Shown here: in pieces, positions 5,826 through 55,713 of the stretch
Layout of the letters: the number at the start of each line of letters is the position of its first letter
Numbering within the stretch: position 1 is the stretch's first letter
From: a virus
Virus record (IMG/VR): IMGVR_UViG_3300045012_000066
Span: 1-64,000 of that record
Length of the DNA: 64,000 bases
Direction: 5' to 3' (one strand)
Position numbers and translations under genes: made by a program
The notes under the pieces: generated by a model
What the model was told of the DNA's origin: nothing
Databases searched by the model: none
The model's input: the letters and a program-made list of their open reading frames with translations, nothing else

Positions 5826-6716
5826 ATGCCCATGATCGAACTGCATGAAGGCTTCTACGTCCGTATTGGCAGCGACATCGCATTTGCGGTAGTCAAGGCA
5901 AGCGAGGACGGAAAAGCGTGCTCTGCGTTTTCCGATGGCCAGTCAGCCGTGGATGGAGGCTTCCTCATCCCCTACAAGGCGTCCGAGGTTTGCGAGCAAC
6001 TGAACGACGCCGAGGAAGAGCTTTACGGCGAAGAAGAGGACGAAAAGTAGAATGCCGCGTCACGTCTTCGTTGGGGACGCCGTACATCTGAAGCAGTCTC
6101 CCTGTCCCGTCTGCGGCCACAAGCTCGACGGCCTCACCCCCGCCAAATTTGACACCCCTCCTGCCAAGCCAGACGACTGGGTTCCGACCAACACCTCTTT
6201 CAGTATCTGCATCTACTGCGCATCCATGCTCCGTTTTGAGGGTGAACGCAAACTGCGCAAAGTCACCCCTGAAGACCTCGTGGAACTGCTCAACGCTGAG
6301 CCGGAACTCTTCAACCTGCTGCATAAGATGGCCGACTTCGCGAACGGGATGATCCGGGATCGGCAGCGCAAGAACTACAGGAAAAACTGATGCAGGCCAG
6401 CGACAGGCTCAAAACGGTGCTGGGGCTGGGAGACGTGGTCGCCCTGTTCCCGGTGCTCAAGGATTGGAGCACGGATGAGCTACGGGCACTGCTTAGGGAT
6501 ATTGAGGAGTACGCCTCTGTGAGTCACAAGGCCATCGATAGAGCGTGGGAAACAGTTGCGTTGTCGCCCAACGTTTTCCTGAGTGACGCGTTGTCGAAGA
6601 CGGTTGACAAGTATCGCGACGAAAAGAAGATAGAAGTGATGCAGATTATGTCGGAAATTAGTTCGGTGGCGATGTTCTATTTGAACCAACGACGTGGAAT
6701 TAAAATTCCCGAGTGA
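5826..6716 (+). other. three small hypothetical CDS (5826-6050; 6052-6390, Zn-ribbon CPVC/CIYC; 6390-6716)
   Basis: Tightly coupled ORFs with RBS; the last stop codon overlaps the first array repeat. Confidence 0.6.
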
Positions 6717-8757
6717 ACCAATGGGTATGAGTGCGCCAGAGCAGTGGAGTGAACCAACACCATAGAGCGTGCCCAAGCCTGAGAGTGAAAACCAGTACTC
6801 GTGCCAAGATTGGATGAGTGAACCAACGCTGGAAAGAGTGCCAAAGTGCGGGAGTGCAACCATTTGCGTAGCGAGTGCCAAGATCGGATGAGTGAACCAA
6901 AGAGTGAGAGAGTGCCATGATCCAATGCGTGAACCGGGCAGGACGAGCGTGCCCGGAAAAGTGAGTGAACCAAGCGCAAGGAGAGTGCCATGGTTGAAGA
7001 GTGAACCAATAATTGGGAGAGCGCCAGAAAGAGGAAGTGAACCAACGCTGGGAAGAGCGCCAAAGTACGGGAGTGCCAACCAAATAATCCGCGAGTACCA
7101 AACACTGGGAGTGAACCATATCCTCTGAGGGTGCCAAATATCGAGCGTGAACCAAATACGACGTGCGTGCCAATGTAGATGAGTGGGAACCAATATGTGG
7201 GAGCGTGCCATGAAACAAGAGTGGGAACCAAGTCTGCTGAGAGGGCCAAGAAAGGTGAGTGCAGCCAAATCTGATGAGAGGACCAAAAGTGGCGAGCGAA
7301 AACCAGAGTGCTTGAGCGTGCCCGGAAAAGTGAGTGAACCGTCTTATCGGAGAGTGCCAAAGGTGGTGAGTGAAACCGACTAGGGCGTGAGCACCAAAAC
7401 CCATGAGTGAACCAAGTGCAAGGAGAGCGCCAATGTAATCGCGTGAACCAAATGAGTAGCGAGCACCAGTTTTCGTGAGTGCAGCCCACGGAGATCGTGA
7501 GCACCAATGCTGAAGAGCGGGAACCAACACCAAGGTGAGTACCATGAAGGCGGAGTGCAACCATGAACAGTGAGAGCACCATAGAAGTCGAGTGAGCCTA
7601 GAAGAACGAGAGTGCCAATACTTGGGAGTGAAAACCAATAATGTTGCGAGTGCCGAAGGTGAAGAGTGAACCATGTCAAGTGATAGCGCCAAGGGTTGAG
7701 AGTGAACCACATCGTGCCCAGCCAGACATTCCGTGAGTGCTAAAGGATGCGAGCGGGAAATACAACCATGAGCTATGCGAGTACCGGGAGTCCCGAGTGA
7801 ACCAATCAAGGATGAGCGTGCCAGAGATGCTGAGTGAACCAAAATACAAGTGAGTACCAAAAGGTTTGAGTGAGCCATCTCCGCAGAGAGTGCCAAACTC
7901 GAAGTGCGAACCATACGTGACGCGAGTGCCATAGTACGTGAGTGAACCAGAGTCAGTGCGAGTACCAAATAGGTAGAGTGAACCGTGATATTTGAGAGCA
8001 CCAAGTAGTGGGAGTGAACCAGATAACCGGCGAGTGCCAGAAGATGAAGAGTGAGCCATCATCGAGGAGTGCGCCAAGGTTAATGAGTGAACCGTACAGA
8101 GGAGAGCACCATAGTTGAGGAGTGAACCAGCGTCAGTGAGCCGCACCACAGTGGAAGAGTGAACCGAGAAAGCGGAGGAGCACCAACGGAGTGGGAGTGA
8201 ACCAACGTCAAGGAGAGTACCAATGTGCCAGAGTGCAACCATGATCGTGGAGAGCGCCACTGAACTGGAGTGAACCAATCATGCCGCGAGTACCAAAGCC
8301 CCTGAGTTGAACCCATGTAAAAGGAGAGCGCCAAATGTAGGGAGTGTCAGCCGTGTACGCCGTGAGCGCCAAGGTAGGAGAGCGAACCATATCCACCTGA
8401 GAGTGCCAAGAAGAGAGAGTGAACCATAACTAGTGTGAGCACCAAAATGAGAGAGTGAACCAAACCTAGCGGAGAGCACCATGAAAAGCGCGTGAACCAG
8501 AAATCCAGAGAGCGCCATATGATGAGAGTCGAACCATGAACGGAGAGGGTGCCAGAAATCCAGAGTGAACCACAGACAGAGAGAGTGCCAGACATGCCGC
8601 GTGAACCATCAAATCGGAGAAGCACCAGAAGACGAGAGTGAACCAGAAATCCAGAGAGCACCATATGATGAGAGTCGAACCAAGCTGTGAGAGAGTACCA
8701 GAGCGGAGAAGTGAACCAAAATCGTAGAGAGCACCATCATTCAGGAGTGAAAATCAG
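6711..8757 (+). repeat. TIGR-like dual-repeat array 1 (about 56 units of 36 nt)
   Basis: Alternating ~10-nt repeats GAGTGAACCA and GAG(A/C)G(T/C)(G/A)CCA separated by ~8-9-nt variable spacers; 18-nt half-period, 36-nt period (e.g. repeats at 6711, 6729, 6747, 6765). Confidence 0.9.
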
Positions 8758-21506: not shown

Positions 21507-21640
21507 TCGGGCTGGTGTAGGGAACAGTTACTTCTTCAAGAGACAGGGGTCGCGGGTTCGATTCCCGTCATCGTGGCAACACGGTGTAGCTCAACGGTAG
21601 AGCACTGTAAAAATGTCACTGCCCCGCTTGTTCCGCCCGA
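21507..21640 (+). ncRNA. yrlA: YrlA-like Y RNA, second copy
   Basis: Same 5' end TCGGGCTGGTGTAGG and 3' end TTGTTCCGCCCGA as 20949-21079; T arm then D arm. Confidence 0.75.
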
Positions 21641-21713
21641 TATAAGAGAGAGCCACTCTTTGACTGGAGGAGTGGCTTTCTGTTGTGTAAACCAGTTTTC
21701 GGGAGGTAATGAA

Positions 21714-23105
21714 ATGAGGACCAATGTAGCAAGTCGCAAGGCGCTTTTGTTTACCCACGAGGGTGCGGTGGCAGTTTTTATCGACCCGATTCACCAGCTT
21801 CGCCGGTCGGTGATGGCGAACATGCTGTTCGAGGACCAATTCTACGAAGACGGTCAGAGTATCGCCACGCGTATCCAAGAGGAAGTGAAAGACGTGCTGA
21901 AGGGGAAGGACGGCGCGACCAAGCTGGTGGAGATCGCCTACGAGGCCCGTACCCAGATGAAGCTGCGCCACGTGCCCTTGCTGCTTCTGGTGGCGCTGAT
22001 CCGGGAGAAGACCAAGGCCACGCGTGCCGTAGTCGCTGACGCCATCGCTCGTGTCGTGCAGCGGCCCGATGAGATGGGCGAGTTGCTGGCGCTCTACTGG
22101 CAGGAGGAGGGCAAGCCCAAAAAGCAGCCTCTGACTGCGCAGATGAAGCGTGGACTGATCGCGGCCTTCCAGAAGTTCGACGCCTACACGCTGGCCAAGT
22201 GGAACAGCGACGGCGCGTCGATCAAGCTGCGTGACGTGCTCTTCCTGATCCATGGCAAGCCCAAGGATGAGGCACAGGCCGAAGTGTGGAAGAAGCTGGC
22301 CGACAAGCAACTGGAGTCGCCGGATACGTGGGAGGTAGCGCTTTCGGCGGGTGCTGACAAAAAGGAGACCTTCACTCGGTTGCTCAAGGAAGAGAAGCTG
22401 GGTGCTCTGGCCCTGTTGCGTAATTTGCGCAACATGCAACAGGCGGGTGTGGAAGTGGAGACCATCCGTCAGGGCCTGAGCAAGATGAAGGTGGAGCGGG
22501 TACTGCCGTTTCGTTTCATCACGGCGGCACGGTACGCGCCGACGCTGGAGCCGGAACTGGAAGCCAGCATGCTGAAGTGTCTGGGTGACCATGACAAGCT
22601 GCCGGGTAAGACGGTGCTGATCGTGGACAACTCGGGTTCGATGGAGGCCAAGGTTTCCGGCAAGTCGGAGATCATGCGGAATGACGCGGCCTGCGCTCTG
22701 GCCATGTTGCTGCGGGAGATTTGCGATGAGGTGCAGGTGGTTGTTTTCTCTGACGAGGCTGTTCTGGTTCCTCCGCGCCGTGGCTTTGCGCTGCGCGATG
22801 TGATCCTGCGGGCAACTCCGCATGGTGGCACGCGCACGGAGACCGCTCTACAGGCGGCAGCTAAGCAGGGTTACGACCGTTGCATCGTAATCACTGACGA
22901 GCAGTCGCACCAGACGATCAGCGGCCCGGTCAAGAATACGAAGGGCTACTTCATCAACGTGGCCAGCTACCAGAACGGTATTGGCTACAAGGATTGGGTG
23001 CATATCGACGGCTGGAGCGAAGCAGTGGTCGAGTACATCTTCCAGTACGAGCGCTTCACCGACGAAGCCTTGACCTCGCCGGGTGAACCGGAGACAATTA
23101 ACTAG
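21714..23105 (+). CDS. rsr: Ro60/TROVE-domain RNA-binding protein with C-terminal vWA
   Basis: THEG..., QLRRSVMANMLFED.FYE, FDAYTLAKW, LRDVLFL.H.KP, TWE, LLRNLRNM, LPFRF, VDNSGSM, ITDEQ. Confidence 0.92.
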   Translation: MRTNVASRKALLFTHEGAVAVFIDPIHQLRRSVMANMLFEDQFYEDGQSIATRIQEEVKDVLKGKDGATKLVEIAYEARTQMKLRHVPLLLLVALIREKTKATRAVVADAIARVVQRPDEMGELLALYWQEEGKPKKQPLTAQMKRGLIAAFQKFDAYTLAKWNSDGASIKLRDVLFLIHGKPKDEAQAEVWKKLADKQLESPDTWEVALSAGADKKETFTRLLKEEKLGALALLRNLRNMQQAGVEVETIRQGLSKMKVERVLPFRFITAARYAPTLEPELEASMLKCLGDHDKLPGKTVLIVDNSGSMEAKVSGKSEIMRNDAACALAMLLREICDEVQVVVFSDEAVLVPPRRGFALRDVILRATPHGGTRTETALQAAAKQGYDRCIVITDEQSHQTISGPVKNTKGYFINVASYQNGIGYKDWVHIDGWSEAVVEYIFQYERFTDEALTSPGEPETIN

Positions 23106-26683: not shown

Positions 26684-28507
26684 TTAAGCGTGCGCCGCGT
26701 CTTGTAAAACACTGAAAGGAATGTAGATAGGTAGTTGGTCAGTGAGTTGTTGCATCGAGCAAAGTGACAAATCATTGACCAACTCTGAACTGCCTGATTT
26801 TACGTGATTTACCGATGGCGGCTGTCTGCTGCTCCTGTCAGTTTCGTCGTCTTCGTCTGCCAAGCCCACCCACAAGCCAAGGACTTTGGCCCCGTCCGCC
26901 GTCCTGCCACGTCCCTTTTCGCCTTCGATTAAAACGTTGAAGATTGGGCAAACGGCGGTGAGCGCACTCCGCTTTTCATCTATCGTCATCTTCAGTACGC
27001 CCCAATTGTCGAATGGGCGCATCGCCAGAGATAGTTCATCCGCTGAAATCATGGAGGCCGCAGGGGTCAACGAGTTGAGAACTCGCTGCGCGGCTTTAAT
27101 CGCCACGTCCAAGCGCTCATAGTCGCGGTCAAGCTCCGCTTCGCCATACCCCCTCATCTTCTTCTTAAACAGGATGAAGCATTGCTGCTTCTCGTCCTCC
27201 ATTGCCGCGATCTCTTTTTTGGTTTGCTCGATTCGCAGGCCATTATCGCCACGCTTTGCCGCCGCCTCGTGGTCTTTGAGCATCCCAAACAGTCGGAACG
27301 GATCGCGCAGCTTCTCGGCGACCTCTATATCTAGAAGGGCATCCAGTTTTTCCCGTCGAATCTGTGGGGCATCGCACTTTAATTCAATCTTGCTGATCTC
27401 ATTCTTACTGTTCATGTGCCATCCTCCCCTAGAGGCGCGGCAGATGTAATACTCGCGGACGATTCCGTTTTGATGATGGGGGCGAGTCATTAAACGCTCG
27501 CCGCAGCGAGCACAGCGAAGAAAGTTGCGAAATAGAAAGTGATCTACACTGGTCGAATTGCGCCGCGCCCTCATCCCGGCTTTATGTTTAATGATTTTTT
27601 GCGCGTGCCAGAACAGGTCGGGAGGGATTGCTGGAGGCACCGGTTTACCGTCCGCGCCTAACATGCGGACTCTCTCGATCTCCTCTTCATGGCGGCGCAC
27701 TCTGGTTTGAGAAATTAATCGCCCGTCTACAACTTTGTTAAGAGAGGGATCAACCTCCGCATCATAAGTGCGGTAACCAATGTACGCGGTGTTACATAGG
27801 ACATTTCTTTTCAGATTACGGTAAGACAGCTTAGTTTCTTTTGCGATCTGGAAATAATTTAATTTTCCTTCAATTATGAGGTCTAGTGCGCGATGTACTT
27901 GGCTGATCTTGGCGTCGTCGTAAGCGTATGCCCAGCGATCAGCATCAGCATCGCGGTATCGTACTTGCTTAACGCCGTATGGCAAGGTTAATTCCGACGA
28001 TGGGCATAGTCCGCGTGCTCTTAACCCCAGTCGCTTAGTGTAGGTTCGCTGTTTAATTAAACGGCGCTCGCGTCCATTGAAGAGCGCGAGCATTTGGAAG
28101 ATCATCATCCCTTCCGGGGAGCCGGTATCGTATGCAGCAGTCTTAGTGAAAATTGTGATGGCGTTATCTTTGAACATCTGCAATAACACTTGGTCTTCCG
28201 GCTCGTCGGGCCTCATTAAGCGCGTATCCTCGACCATCACCACGCCGTAATATTCACCAGACTCTAAGTCAGTTTTAAGCTGCGCAATCTCCGGCGTATC
28301 CTTCACGTATTTGCCGCTGACGCCGGGTAGCCTAATCTGCTTCTTTAAGTCGAGTTGTACCCCGTTGCGTCGCGCAATTTCCACGCACTCCTCGTGCTGC
28401 GTATCGAGACCGCCCAACTCTACCTGCTTGGGTGTGCTGACACGCAGAACTTCCAGACAGAGCCGCCCCCGTTGCTCACTACTGAGCTTTCTTGTTTTTA
28501 GTTTCAT
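26684..28507 (-). CDS. large serine recombinase (integrase)
   Basis: RVSTPKQ catalytic Ser, GVSG, DTRLMR, recombinase domain, Zn-ribbon CARCG...YYIC, coiled coil; 607 aa. Confidence 0.9.
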   Translation of the reverse strand: MKLKTRKLSSEQRGRLCLEVLRVSTPKQVELGGLDTQHEECVEIARRNGVQLDLKKQIRLPGVSGKYVKDTPEIAQLKTDLESGEYYGVVMVEDTRLMRPDEPEDQVLLQMFKDNAITIFTKTAAYDTGSPEGMMIFQMLALFNGRERRLIKQRTYTKRLGLRARGLCPSSELTLPYGVKQVRYRDADADRWAYAYDDAKISQVHRALDLIIEGKLNYFQIAKETKLSYRNLKRNVLCNTAYIGYRTYDAEVDPSLNKVVDGRLISQTRVRRHEEEIERVRMLGADGKPVPPAIPPDLFWHAQKIIKHKAGMRARRNSTSVDHFLFRNFLRCARCGERLMTRPHHQNGIVREYYICRASRGGWHMNSKNEISKIELKCDAPQIRREKLDALLDIEVAEKLRDPFRLFGMLKDHEAAAKRGDNGLRIEQTKKEIAAMEDEKQQCFILFKKKMRGYGEAELDRDYERLDVAIKAAQRVLNSLTPAASMISADELSLAMRPFDNWGVLKMTIDEKRSALTAVCPIFNVLIEGEKGRGRTADGAKVLGLWVGLADEDDETDRSSRQPPSVNHVKSGSSELVNDLSLCSMQQLTDQLPIYIPFSVLQDAAHA

Positions 28508-51800: not shown

Positions 51801-53106
51801 TACCTCGTCCCACTTGTCGGAGACGGCCAGACGGTCGATGTTGTAAATAAATCCGTGGCTCCGTACCATGCGATCTGACTGCGCCCAGTAGCCCAGCTTC
51901 TTCATGCCGCGCACGCTGCCGGTCTTGTCGATGTTCGGGTGGCAGGTGTGCCCGCATCCGGCGCTGCCGTTCTCGACCCATGCGAGTCCGGTGCGCTCGT
52001 CGAAGTGAAGCTCGATGTATGGCGCAAGCTGCTTTACGAAAGTCTTCTTGTGCTTCTTCGCCTCGATATCCTCTCCCAGCGCTTGGCGGTTGCCCTTCTC
52101 GAATTTGGCACGTAGCCGTGCAGGCACATTCACGCGGTCGTCGATGTAGTAGCCCTCTCCGCGCTTCCAGTGGTCCTCGGTTGCGGATGCAAGGAAGAGG
52201 CAATTGCGATTGCGGAGCCTCGTCAAAACGTCTTTCTGTAACTCGGTCAATTCGTTCGGCATTTAAATTTTTCTCCAGTAGCCATACACGCAGCGGTTGC
52301 CGTTGCGGGACGGGTCATAGGTGTCGTAGATGATGCCGTCGATGACGGCTGTAACGTGACGGCTGACGTTGACCACCAGTCGTCCCATAGGAAGCTCGCC
52401 AGCCCGAAGGTGGACTTTGCAGCCTTGGCCGATGTGCATCGTCGGAATCCACTCAAAGCCCAGCGACGCTATGTAGTTTTTGAACCACTGCCGCTTGATG
52501 TGGATGCCGCGCTCGGCGGATGCCACCCGCTTCGGAGTGTGCTTGGTACGCCTCTGCGCTCCGGTGCCTTCGGCCAGAGCCTGATGAATCTCGGCGTAGG
52601 GCATACCGCTGGCAATGGCGATGGCTCGCGTGGTGCAGTCCCAAGCTTTGTCGTAGTATCCGGCAGCGCGTCGCCCGCCGTCGTGGCGGACCCACGGCAG
52701 AGTGCGCGGCTGGACCCGGAACCCGTAGATAATTTCGTGGCTCAAAACTCAACCCCTCCCGGTTAGTTTTTAAAGTTACGACAATGTTAGCGTACACACG
52801 CGTACACGTCAAGCGCGGAATTTATTTCGGCCAGCGCAGCCACGATATGAAGACGAACACTAGCACGCTGGCGACCCACCAAAGGAAATACTGGCGTGCC
52901 TTTTTCGGCTCCTTCTTTACGGCCCAGTAGATACTGCAAGGCAGCAAACACATGGCGGCGATCAGGGCATAGGTCTGGCTGACAAAAATCAGAAACAGAA
53001 CGACTACGGCGATCCCTAGAAAGCCAAGGATGAGAACATCAAGACCGGCATCGCAAAGCAGGATGAATGCGGCGATGCCCATGAGAATAAGTGCGATAGT
53101 ACCCAT
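48842..53106 (-). other. run of small hypothetical CDS (48842-~49281, 49349-49558, 49639-50106, 50112-50399, 50437-50739, 51267-51482, 51485-51763, 51765-52262, 52263-52745, 52822-53106)
   Basis: Co-oriented ORFs with recurring leader motifs. Confidence 0.55.
50741..51214 (-). CDS. paralog of the 23867-24553 Cys/His protein
   Basis: PVPVVVKWIDGKPDFR, CSVCG, GPMHEKCA, CPFL. Confidence 0.7.
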   Translation of the reverse strand: MSKCPITRAIARLKTFAGMPVPVVVKWIDGKPDFRQIDGETYVQHYRYKLCSVCGTKLKLSCYWVGGKASADSHYFADGPMHEKCAELSINLCPFLNGTKPTYRGDDVKAMPLQGADERPAKMYLLRGLTGAIEWHELGSESAALYAGKQLTVVKEF

Positions 53107-53738
53107 TAGACTGAAACCTCTTTTCCTGTAATTCGTTCGCGCATCAGGCGCATGATCTTCAAATACGCTTCCGGTCTGCCAGCATACTCTTCGCGCCAGT
53201 TCTTTCCGGTCGTGTAGCTATCGTCCCGCAACCGCCTGTAACTCACCAGACACTCACCGACCTTGACTCCCGTCCGCTGGCCCTTCGACTTCGCAAAGAA
53301 GCTGGAGCCGGGATGACCGCATAGCAGGGCAGGGAGCAGGATGCCTTTCTGTTCGCGCTGTGCCTGTTGCAGGGAAGCGTCTACCAGCACGCCATTCACG
53401 TTGAGTACCAGATGCCCGCCAAAGCTGTTCGGTTTAAGCTGCCCATTCTCCGGTGGAACGATGCCGACTCCCCACGCGCCGTGCTGGTTGAAGAGCGCCA
53501 TGCGCTCGTCATGATCCTCGGGCAGCGGTCCTTGTTCCACCAGCTTCTGCATGGGACCATTGAGGACTTGGACGGTCACTGCGACCGCACGCGCCTTGTA
53601 GCCATACTCCGCGAAGACAGCCTGTAGTATCTTGCAGGTCGCAACGCAGCAGTCAGGCCGAAAATACTCCAGCATGGTCTTGCGCACCACGGGCAGCATG
53701 ACGTTGAGCAAGGTCGGCAGTGGAATTTTATTTGCCAT
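53106..53738 (-). CDS. hypothetical protein, possible C-H-D protease/transglutaminase fold
   Basis: DCCVATC ... GGHLVL ... VDAS. Confidence 0.45.
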   Translation of the reverse strand: MANKIPLPTLLNVMLPVVRKTMLEYFRPDCCVATCKILQAVFAEYGYKARAVAVTVQVLNGPMQKLVEQGPLPEDHDERMALFNQHGAWGVGIVPPENGQLKPNSFGGHLVLNVNGVLVDASLQQAQREQKGILLPALLCGHPGSSFFAKSKGQRTGVKVGECLVSYRRLRDDSYTTGKNWREEYAGRPEAYLKIMRLMRERITGKEVSV

Positions 53739-53842
53739 CTCTCCCTAAAACCTCTTTTCCTGTAAGCTTCCGGTTTTTCAAATTCAAATGCATTCCCCGG
53801 TTCGGTAAAATAATTAACCAAACCGGGAAGACTGACAGGGGT

Positions 53843-53901
53843 TGGTGGACCGGACGGGATTTGAACCCGCAAAGCGCTCACCCTACCACGGGTTCCGGCC
53901 C
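53843..53901 (-). ncRNA. 59-nt tRNA mimic lacking the anticodon arm, with Ala identity (G3.U70, A73, CCA)
   Basis: GGGCCGG/CCGGTCC acceptor, CCC-gtggta-GGG D arm, 10-nt linker, GCGGG-TTCAAAT-CCCGT T arm, ACCA. Confidence 0.7.
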
Positions 53902-53910
53902 ACATTTGGT

Positions 53911-54519
53911 TTACTTGGTGGCCTCTAATGCAGCCGATGTGAACTTGGACTGATCGAGTGCCATGTCGCCCACAGTGTACGCGGTAAGCTCCGTCCCTGA
54001 AGGGATCGTGATGTCCTTGCCGTGCATCATGAGGAACAGGGCAGAGCCGCCCAGCGTGAAAATTGCCGTTGCCGCCATCGCGCCGATCATGGCTCCCGTG
54101 TGTCCGCCGCCTTTGCCTCCGGTGGTTGCCGCAAGGTCGTCGCGCTCGCCGTCCGTTAGACGAACGTAGTTGAGGGTGACATCCAGCTTGCCGCCCCGGC
54201 CAGCCCACTTCTTGCCCTCGTGCTCGTTGATAGTGCCCAGAGCCTTGGTGCCCTTGGCGATCACCACGATGCCATTGACGGTGACATCCTCGACGACATC
54301 GAAAGATATCTTCTCGCCCACGTAATCGTGAAACGCGTTTGAGGATGATATGGCTTGCGCGATCCTCAGCTTTACAGGCGTTCCGTCCACCAGTATGAAC
54401 GGCTTTGCTGCCGGTGCTGTCTGTGCGGGTGTATGGTTAGCCTCGACCGCTTGCTGCTGGCCGAAGACCGTAGGAGTTATCAAGGCAGATATGGTTGCAA
54501 TTGCTAAAAACTTTCTCAT
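53911..54519 (-). CDS. secreted beta-rich protein with Gly-zipper
   Basis: Signal peptide MRKFLAIAT..., LVDGTPVKLRI, V.V.GIVVIAKGT.A.G.I, GRGGKL, I.IPSGTE. Confidence 0.7.
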   Translation of the reverse strand: MRKFLAIATISALITPTVFGQQQAVEANHTPAQTAPAAKPFILVDGTPVKLRIAQAISSSNAFHDYVGEKISFDVVEDVTVNGIVVIAKGTKALGTINEHEGKKWAGRGGKLDVTLNYVRLTDGERDDLAATTGGKGGGHTGAMIGAMAATAIFTLGGSALFLMMHGKDITIPSGTELTAYTVGDMALDQSKFTSAALEATK

Positions 54520-54604
54520 CGTTCTCTTTCCTGTAATTTTATTTACTGCAACTCCGCAGTCGGTTGGGGTTATTTCAACGGGGGGCGGCACTCGATCTTC
54601 TCTC

Positions 54605-55713
54605 TTAAACCTGTTTATGTGTGAATGATGTTGTTTGCTGTGCTGCCAAGGTGCAGCCGGGATGATGGCCAAGCTCCAGCGGGTTTTGCCCGCAATGGAC
54701 GCAGAGTGATTCGCGCCGTCTCTTTATACGTGAGCCAATGAAGCTAATGCCGCCGCCGACCAGCCCGCAGAGGACAGCGGTCACCAGTATCGGATGCTCC
54801 GGGCTGATTGCGTGAGCCAGCCCGAACTGGCGGGACGCCGTGGCCGTGAGCGCACCGGCAATCATACTTAAAAAGCTCCAGCCATCCCGCTGCGCCTTGG
54901 TCGGTTGTGGGGTCGTTGGGGTGGAATCTATATCAGTCAAAAAATCTCTCCTTGGTAGGAACGTGTTTATGTGTGGGTGTAGCCGTCCGGTTCGATACCG
55001 ACAAACATGCCGCACCAGTTAATCCCGGCGTAGCGGTCAGAGCCGATGCCGCTTTCCTGCACGCGGGTAAAGAACTCGTGACGGTTGCGTGAGCCATCCG
55101 GGCTGCGCTTGTACAGCGCATTGATAGCCTCGACCTGCTTGGGTGTCATCCACTCAGGAATGACGATATGCGGTTCACCGCGCACCAGCCGTTCGTCGCG
55201 ATCCTGTGAGCCAGCGGAATAGCCCTCAAAGTATGCCTCACGGTTGGACACGCCACGGGTGTCAGGCATCTCTGAATCGGAGCCGTGACGATATCCCAGC
55301 GCGTAATTCTCGGTCTTGGTCATGACTTTCTATTCCTCCGGTTTCGTATAAATTGGTTTAGCGTTGAGGTCCATGAAGAAGACTGCATCGCATTCGTCAC
55401 AGGCTCGCAGTGCTTGCGCCGGGACGCCTTCGGCTGGCTTCGTATGCACCCACTTGCCACACTCAGGGCAAAGCAGGAACTCTCGCTGCGCGTCGCGTTC
55501 AAGGTCGGATGCTGATTGGGGACACACGCCGTTGGTGTGATCTGTGAATGGTTGGCCGCAGTTGCGGCAGCGGTCTGGCACGTCGTATCCGGCGTTGCCG
55601 CGCTGATGTTCCTTGGGATCGAGCGGTTCAAAGTGGGTCATTGCCTCTCCTGTAAACGTCTTTGTGTGAGGGTCAGATTTCAAAGTGGCCGGTGGTTGCC
55701 GACCACTTTTCAT
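54605..55713 (-). other. small hypothetical CDS (e.g. 54967-55323, part of 55330-55713)
   Basis: Short ORFs with leader motifs. Confidence 0.4.

Follow-up and report, generated by a model that had tools for sequence, protein, structure and literature searches.

The window, by which we mean the whole 64,000-nt stretch of DNA analysed here, covers the opening 64 kb of a virus record that is 122,463 bp long and rated complete, and it carries, inside a run of small minus-strand genes, a 59-nt tRNA(Ala)-like gene that has no anticodon arm (positions 53843-53901, minus strand). The upstream ORF (53911-54672, minus strand), listed as 253 aa and probably about 202 aa when read from an internal Met, ends with a stop codon some 10 nt ahead of the element, and the downstream ORF (53106-53738, minus strand), which encodes a hypothetical protein of 210 aa whose nearest protein-atlas clusters are mostly viral, starts 104 nt beyond the CCA end. 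Between the element and the downstream ORF lies a long hairpin of about 13 bp, AU-rich in its loop and lacking a U-tract (53790-53830, minus strand), which is kept in a relative of the phage that is 97% identical overall (contig L150). Neither neighbouring protein belongs to a Pfam or PHROG family, the protein atlas placed both in hypothetical clusters only, and an attempt at synteny found no relatives of either in IMG/VR or GenBank phages; a blastn search of the 4 kb around the element against phages likewise returned nothing. Because neither a promoter nor a terminator of its own was predicted for the element, it is probably co-transcribed.

Reading the element on the minus strand, so that RNA position 1 is window position 53901 and position 59 is 53843, revealed a compact arrangement of tRNA parts. 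The acceptor stem joins a 5' strand GGGCCGG (53895-53901, minus strand) to a 3' strand CCGGUCC (53847-53853, minus strand) through six Watson-Crick pairs and one G3.U70 pair (53899 with 53849), and a single unpaired A separates its 5' strand from a D-like hairpin (53880-53893, minus strand) that is supported by the predicted fold and by covariation and consists of a 4-bp stem, ACCC/GGGU, and a 6-nt loop, GUGGUA, the GG of which could make elbow contacts. A 9-nt linker (53871-53879, minus strand) then stands in place of position 26, the anticodon arm and the variable loop, and contains the self-complementary block AGCGCU (53873-53878; 8 nt when G.U ends count). The T arm (53854-53870, minus strand) has a 5-bp stem, GCGGG/CCCGU, with one G.U among its pairs and a 7-nt loop, UUCAAAU, matches the motif GGTTCRANYCC, and leads through the acceptor 3' strand to discriminator A73 (53846) and an encoded CCA (53845-53843), which together close the element at 53843-53846 (minus strand). 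The minimum-free-energy fold computed with ViennaRNA for the 59 nt alone is exactly this structure, at -26.3 kcal/mol, and the element adopts the identical fold inside 181 nt of context. An earlier note had described an anticodon-less tRNA mimic at this place, and its anatomy and coordinates proved right, with the minus-strand reading and the fold in agreement; the anticodon arm is indeed absent, whereas the linker, given there as 10 nt, measures 9 nt, or 10 if the hairpin is taken as 3 bp. The 59-nt element is thereby confirmed as a genuine feature at 53843-53901.

Standard searches pass over this gene. ARAGORN made no call at 53843-53901, though five ordinary tRNAs are found in the genome, and Rfam gave no match there at gathering score, with a permissive Rfam search yielding tRNA-Sec as the best clan match (21.4 bits, E 0.09); the element scores 92.7 bits against covariance model R1. 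Acceptor stem, D and T arms, T-loop and D-loop GG are present as in a canonical tRNA, whereas the 7-nt-loop anticodon arm of such a tRNA is missing and a 9-nt unpaired linker runs between the D-like hairpin and the T stem. The encoded CCA is shared with the genome's other tRNA genes that were checked, four of the five, and the phage genome encodes no tyrosine integrase, SmpB or CCA-adding enzyme. A structural scan requiring a T-loop motif, a paired T stem and a paired 7-bp acceptor stem within 40-68 nt returned a single non-tRNA match in the real 122-kb genome, which was the 59-nt element, as compared with 0.32 matches per genome for T arm plus acceptor stem across sixty simulated genomes, none of whose matches had CCA. 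This comparison rules out a chance origin of the element.

Elsewhere in the window we observed another tRNA-like feature. A Ro60 orthologue (21573-23105, plus strand; TROVE and Ro60-vWA domains, phrog_850) is preceded, about 1.4 kb upstream, by a tRNA-like domain at about 20037-20180 (plus strand) that is enclosed by a long stem and contains a partial Rfam tRNA match (20047-20108) with no acceptor pairing. Together, the Ro60 gene and this domain resemble a bacterial Y RNA module of the YrlA type, which is among the known tRNA mimics.

Evaluating relatives of the element by BLAST of the 59-mer against GenBank phages revealed a match in unannotated DNA of Roseobacter phage DSS3P8 (L138, KT870145.1), and Ruegeria phage V10 (L137, MH015255.1), a relative of DSS3P8, also carries a mini-tRNA (601-673); both homologues came from BLAST and are thus independent of the search patterns used below. 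The DSS3P8 homologue, at 62 nt, has the same acceptor and T stems, A73 and CCA, and differs in its short hairpin (GCU/AGC) and in a 12-nt linker that replaces the anticodon arm. It belongs to a tRNA cluster whose next tRNA begins 5 nt further on, in a genome that also has a separate normal tRNA-Ala and that has essentially no proteins in common with the phage studied here (one weak tblastn match from all ORFs). The V10 element likewise has the same acceptor and T stems, together with a D-like stem, GCU/AGC, and a linker other than those of the window, and it bears an 11-nt tandem duplication inside the T arm, with the neighbouring type-II tRNA lost; this duplication could be a real inactivation or an assembly artefact. 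Neither mini-tRNA is annotated in the published DSS3P8 and V10 genomes.

Two further unannotated genes were seen in DSS3P8. One is a second anticodon-less mini (7873-7930, 58 nt) with C3-G70, discriminator U, CCA and a linker palindrome GTGCAC, and a search pattern for its class returned almost only chance GC-rich matches. The other is a 74-nt irregular tRNA-Ala-like gene (14399-14472) directly after the normal tRNA-Ala.

The most informative relative came from contig L143, which is 93.3% identical to the window over exactly the element's 60 nt, so that the boundaries of the match are the ends of the RNA, and which has nothing else in common with the entire 122-kb genome at the DNA or protein level. 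There the element is flanked by two same-strand ORFs: a stop codon precedes it by 18 nt, and the next start follows after about 25 nt. Scanning IMG/VR and metagenome contigs with patterns extended the set to about 20 distinct lineages of mini-length elements with a common architecture, situated in unrelated phages and metagenomes; no recurring partner protein was found beside the elements across contigs, an exact 26-mer of the element's 3' half had no match in virus contigs, and the encoded CCA is absent in many family members. These observations show that the element spreads as a discrete unit among unrelated phages.

Other tRNA-like genes were encountered in further contigs. Virus contig L005 has tandem hairpin-less minis (6312-6368 and 6251-6299, both minus strand) with a similar 17-nt interior, and in L151 (2903-2968), L154 (9345-9412) and L159 (3165-3232) tRNA-like genes have an anticodon arm shrunk to a 2-4-bp hairpin with a 3-4-nt loop.

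To evaluate covariation, 17 alanine-type minis were aligned with a covariance model built from two gapless copies, which was used instead of MAFFT since MAFFT alignments misplaced the short hairpin. Both sides had changed in 4 of the 4 pairs of the D-like helix, with 95.6% of cells paired, and in 4 of the 5 pairs of the T stem, with 98.8% of cells paired. The covariation score was 0.311, as compared with 0.071 in shuffles (0/500 of which reach it) and at most 0.065 in slid controls, and these values are to be read with the caveat that the alignment was fitted to the model and that several members had been chosen by scans demanding paired stems. No pattern or scan had ever demanded the D-like helix; for the T stem, the search pattern imposed no pairing, whereas a filter did, and the invariance of the acceptor stem is an artefact of the search patterns and uninformative. 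Covariation in homologues, which the earlier note had named as a check, is thus present in both helices.

These comparisons bear on whether the gene is simply decaying, that is, a tRNA-Ala pseudogene left without selection after loss of the anticodon arm. Degenerate tRNA genes are frequent in phages with tRNA clusters, the tandem duplication in the V10 T arm should break the fold, and tRNA finders make no call on the element, all of which would suit such a history. Against it, some 20 lineages of unrelated phages have the same architecture, two stems of which show compensatory changes, the window copy is fully paired in its stems and complete in its CCA, and its identity to a copy with unrelated flanks reaches 93%; in addition, the 97% identical relative L150, which is too similar for selection to be measured, has several changes in the flanks and none in the element. 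We consider decay very unlikely. The narrower idea of a recent deletion from a full tRNA-Ala, named in the earlier note, is rejected on the same conservation across about 20 lineages with compensatory stem changes.

We next consider what the acceptor end would specify. All of the alanine identity elements that can be read from sequence (G1:C72, G2:C71, G3.U70, A73 and CCA) are present, in support of the earlier note, and they occur in a 7-bp acceptor stem stacked on the T arm, which are the features of an AlaRS substrate. A scan that did not constrain the acceptor stem recovered a new mini (L225) in which three acceptor pairs had changed with compensation while G3.U70, A73, CCA, the GG-loop hairpin and the AGCGCT linker block were retained. 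The acceptor-free scans also returned anticodon-arm-less minis with non-alanine acceptor stems (L228, L235, L321 and L340). Because these non-alanine minis and the second mini of DSS3P8 exist, the anticodon-less architecture is generic and the alanine type is one subfamily, namely the one in which charging would need no anticodon. It may also be that the alanine identity was simply inherited from the parent tRNA, because many of the minis from the acceptor-free scans are not of the alanine type.

Unusual tRNA genes that standard finders overlook include the irregular 8/4 and 9/3 'allo-tRNAs' of phages and bacteria, of which some have G3.U70 and are AlaRS substrates, and some are found where alpha-proteobacterial phages cluster their tRNA genes (Mukai et al. 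2017, PMC5389517). Our element resembles them in being overlooked, whereas allo-tRNAs keep an anticodon arm and can decode and the window element has none. A set of 73-76-nt tRNAs with an Ala-type acceptor stem and G3.U70, observed in genomes of Acidobacteriota (L022, L035, L071, L086 and L048) and read by ARAGORN as having Arg or Asp anticodons, probably belongs among the irregular tRNAs of Mukai et al. 2017.

A natural comparison for an alanine-type RNA that lacks an anticodon arm is the tRNA-like domain (TLD) of tmRNA. A 'TLD only' tmRNA is encoded by mycobacteriophage DS6A; in E. coli, a molecule like it is a strong inhibitor of tmRNA, possibly through titration of SmpB, and organelles, namely some plastids and jakobid mitochondria, have CDS-less tmRNAs of about 65 nt (PMC4131195, PMC11915505). 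We located the DS6A element at JN698994 28478-28557 and used it as a positive control, for which the Rfam tmRNA model (RF00023) gave 34.7 bits (E 1.2e-12) in a match that spans the deleted middle and takes in the UCGAC/GGAC junction. For the window element and for its DSS3P8 homologue, this sensitive Rfam search gave no tmRNA match, the DSS3P8 homologue being matched as tRNA (27.8 bits). Like the DS6A RNA, ours is a small phage RNA with a 7-bp acceptor stem bearing G3.U70, A73, a T arm and no anticodon, and both would be expected to be recognised by AlaRS and not to decode. The two differ in that the DS6A RNA is a genuine derivative of tmRNA, in which the D-loop has no stem and ends in UCGAC, a P2 hairpin is present and CCA is not encoded, whereas the window RNA scores as tRNA-like only, its D arm is stemmed, a single-stranded linker of 9 nt takes the place of P2 and CCA is encoded. 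As in a tmRNA TLD, then, the acceptor stem with G3.U70, the discriminator A and the T arm are there; the stemless D-loop, the UCGAC/GGAC junction and P2 are not. Because the tmRNA model finds no match and the D arm is stemmed and covarying, sequence comparison shows the family as tRNA-derived and not as a tmRNA homologue, and the element may work like a TLD, though it is not one.

We also observed bacterial elements of about 70 nt, in Actinomycetes and others, that combine the same Ala-type acceptor and T arm with a stemless TGGT-type D-loop and one long hairpin (L034 5517-5587, L055 7715-7785, L065, L108, L111, L124 677-747 and L126 1886-1959) and that match no Rfam family at gathering score. 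Two of them, L124 and L126, gave weak tmRNA matches (about 22 bits, E about 6e-5), and elements of this type may be TLD-only tmRNA-like genes as in DS6A. Given these weak matches, a distant link of the mini-tRNA family to tmRNA is possible.

The earlier note had gone further and proposed a stand-alone mimic of the TLD, which by analogy would bind host SmpB, and EF-Tu once alanylated, and so block or divert trans-translation. What speaks for this is the combination, as in tmRNA, of alanine identity with a missing anticodon arm, the DS6A precedent with its inhibitory E. coli counterpart (PMC4131195, PMC11915505), and the weak tmRNA matches of two bacterial elements that have the same acceptor/T-arm module. 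The tmRNA model, however, picks out the DS6A element and neither the window's nor that of DSS3P8, the D arm is stemmed and covaries, the junction and any P2-like helix are lacking, non-alanine siblings exist and the phage has no SmpB. Kinship with tmRNA therefore does not hold, while the mimic has a phage precedent in DS6A; because sibling minis with non-alanine acceptor stems exist, tmRNA mimicry is an analogy at best, and we regard this explanation as improbable.

The linker provides a further trait that varies among lineages. In about 60% of the alanine-type lineages, the window's included, it contains a perfect self-complementary block of 6-8 nt whose sequence differs by lineage (AGCGCT, GCGCGC, AGCGCGCT, TGTACA, CCCGCGGG, CTCTAGAG and TTCCGGAA) and whose position is restricted, starting 0-3 nt past the hairpin and ending 1-3 nt before the T stem; in V10, one change converts TGTACA to the 8-nt TGTGCACA. 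Considering linkers alone, at least 6 nt are self-complementary in 6/8 lineages (P about 6.5e-5 against shuffles, a post hoc value), and with whole interiors and a conservative null, at least 6 nt are so in 9/14 lineages as compared with 3.6 expected (P 0.002) and at least 8 nt in 4/14 as compared with 0.9 expected (P 0.009). The palindrome is absent in about six alanine-type lineages and in the non-alanine minis L235, L321 and L340.

A palindrome without a spacer cannot form a hairpin, and co-folding predicts dimers in which two linkers form a common helix between two cloverleaf-like junctions. For the window RNA the predicted gain on dimerising is -13.7 kcal/mol, as compared with -8.1 +/- 2.4 when the linker is shuffled, and 0.7% of shuffles match it. 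On the basis of this modelling, dimerisation of the RNA is a tentative possibility, and a still more speculative form of it is a homodimer in which the linkers pair as a 6-8-bp helix at the place of the anticodon stem, giving a double-headed, tRNA-shaped particle with two CCA ends, for which co-folding predicts two four-way junctions. If this were true, the dimer would be chargeable with alanine at both ends and never able to enter the decoding site, and it would represent a new kind of phage tRNA decoy against host factors that are dimeric or that read tRNA shape, with AlaRS, EF-Tu, SmpB and tRNA-targeting defence enzymes as candidate targets.

A palindrome beside a tRNA-derived sequence also raises the thought that the locus acts as DNA, as an attP remnant of a tRNA gene that an integrase targets, with the palindrome as the core site. 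The phage does encode a large serine recombinase with Resolvase and zinc-ribbon recombinase domains (26684-28507, minus strand), and may be temperate; attP sites often contain tRNA 3' halves (PMC10865867). This recombinase gene nevertheless lies 25 kb from the element, no tyrosine integrase is present, and the complete 5' acceptor strand, the D-like hairpin and the CCA would be superfluous for an attP core. The stems covary at the RNA level, the DSS3P8 integrase is 44 kb away from that phage's element and beside a tRNA-Phe, and the palindrome sequences differ among lineages, so that we give an attachment or recombination site hardly any credence.

Taken together, we propose, with a probability of roughly 0.5, that the element is a conserved phage gene for a non-decoding mini-tRNA that would be processed and alanylated and would act in trans as a mimic of the tRNA top half. 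Such a gene would have arisen from a tRNA(Ala)-type gene by loss of the anticodon arm and variable loop, with the acceptor/T-arm helix, D-like hairpin, A73 and CCA kept. An acceptor/T-arm coaxial helix with G3.U70 and A73-CCA suffices in vitro for AlaRS, RNase P, the CCA-adding enzyme and EF-Tu. Lacking a promoter of its own, the element would be transcribed together with the upstream ORF. Because an acceptor/T-arm helix with CCA is enough as a substrate for bacterial RNase P, host RNase P would be expected to cut at G1, with the 3' end trimmed to the encoded CCA, and the transcript would consequently be severed between the two ORFs; we hold processing of this kind to be quite probable. The released 59-nt RNA would carry all of the anticodon-independent AlaRS identity elements, and because G3.U70 in such a helix suffices for AlaRS, alanine charging is expected, which we favour by a little over even odds. 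Being without an anticodon, and for that reason non-decoding, the RNA would then act in trans by competing for, or decoying, factors that recognise the half of tRNA(Ala), or of tRNAs generally, made up of acceptor, T arm and elbow, perhaps as a homodimer, as the self-complementary linker suggests. For this last part the chances come close to even, and titration of SmpB would be a minority sub-case of it by analogy with TLD-only RNAs.

The principal alternative keeps the cut and dispenses with the product. Here the tRNA-like fold would only recruit RNase P and 3'-end enzymes to divide a polycistronic transcript between ORFs, as a purely cis-acting phage counterpart of the t-elements of plant mitochondria, and the excised RNA would be a functionless by-product. 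In plant mitochondria, t-elements have been shown to mark mRNA ends made by RNase P/Z, and the excised t-element RNA can be stable (Forner et al. 2007, PMC1920247). The likeness is considerable, as both have a non-canonical tRNA-like fold with a conserved T arm, both are placed between coding regions, and in both excision by tRNA-processing enzymes would create mRNA ends; indeed, the T arm of our element fits GGTTCRANYCC, the motif used for finding t-elements (PMC1920247). The position about 10 nt past an upstream stop codon with no promoter of its own also suits a cis signal, as does the arrangement in the closest homologue, and anticodon-less minis with many acceptor identities fit a role that needs tRNA shape only. 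The tight placement between same-strand ORFs here and in L143 would be explained by a purely cis-acting signal.

The element departs from t-elements in belonging to a phage and not an organelle, in its uniform compact architecture with an 8-12-nt linker for the anticodon arm, in retaining the alanine identity set and CCA, in its frequent palindromic linker, and in occurring inside tRNA clusters as well: the element lies at a junction of coding regions in the window and in L143, and inside a tRNA cluster in DSS3P8. It is on such points that we slightly prefer a trans-acting role over a signal for cutting alone, because 93% identity across phages with unrelated flanks is conservation at the sequence level that exceeds what shape alone would need, because in the DSS3P8 cluster, 5 nt from the next tRNA, an extra cutting mark would be redundant, because L225 keeps G3.U70, A73 and CCA despite its altered acceptor stem, and because cutting does not explain the enriched self-complementary linkers. 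The cutting signal is accordingly the less probable account, though one that we entertain seriously.

Among known kinds of RNA, those that come nearest are TLD-only tmRNAs, t-elements and synthetic minihelices. The last of these, the synthetic alanine minihelices attributed to Francklyn and Schimmel in 1989, are acceptor/T-arm hairpins reportedly charged by AlaRS, and our element is like them in its acceptor/T-arm helix, G3.U70 and A73-CCA, while it differs in being a natural gene that has a D-like hairpin, with which an elbow can form, and a linker of conserved length. In the literature on anticodon-less phage tRNA-like genes, we found no description of this mini-tRNA family. Standard tRNA finders and Rfam overlook such genes, which are therefore absent from phage annotations, and the covariance model from the work on 17 minis could seed a proper family.

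Our observations indicate that the element is a conserved RNA, unable to read codons, that most likely serves as a tRNA look-alike, as a transcript-cutting signal, or as both. The usual explanations for phage tRNA genes are codon supply or escape from anticodon nucleases; when a conserved tRNA gene has lost its anticodon and yet keeps all that processing, CCA recognition and, here, alanylation require, a role for tRNA shape other than decoding is suggested. If the RNA acts in trans, it would be a natural decoy of the minihelix type and a compact model for the manipulation of AlaRS, EF-Tu, RNase P or SmpB during infection, and if it acts in cis, the tRNA punctuation of transcripts known from organelles would extend to phage operons.
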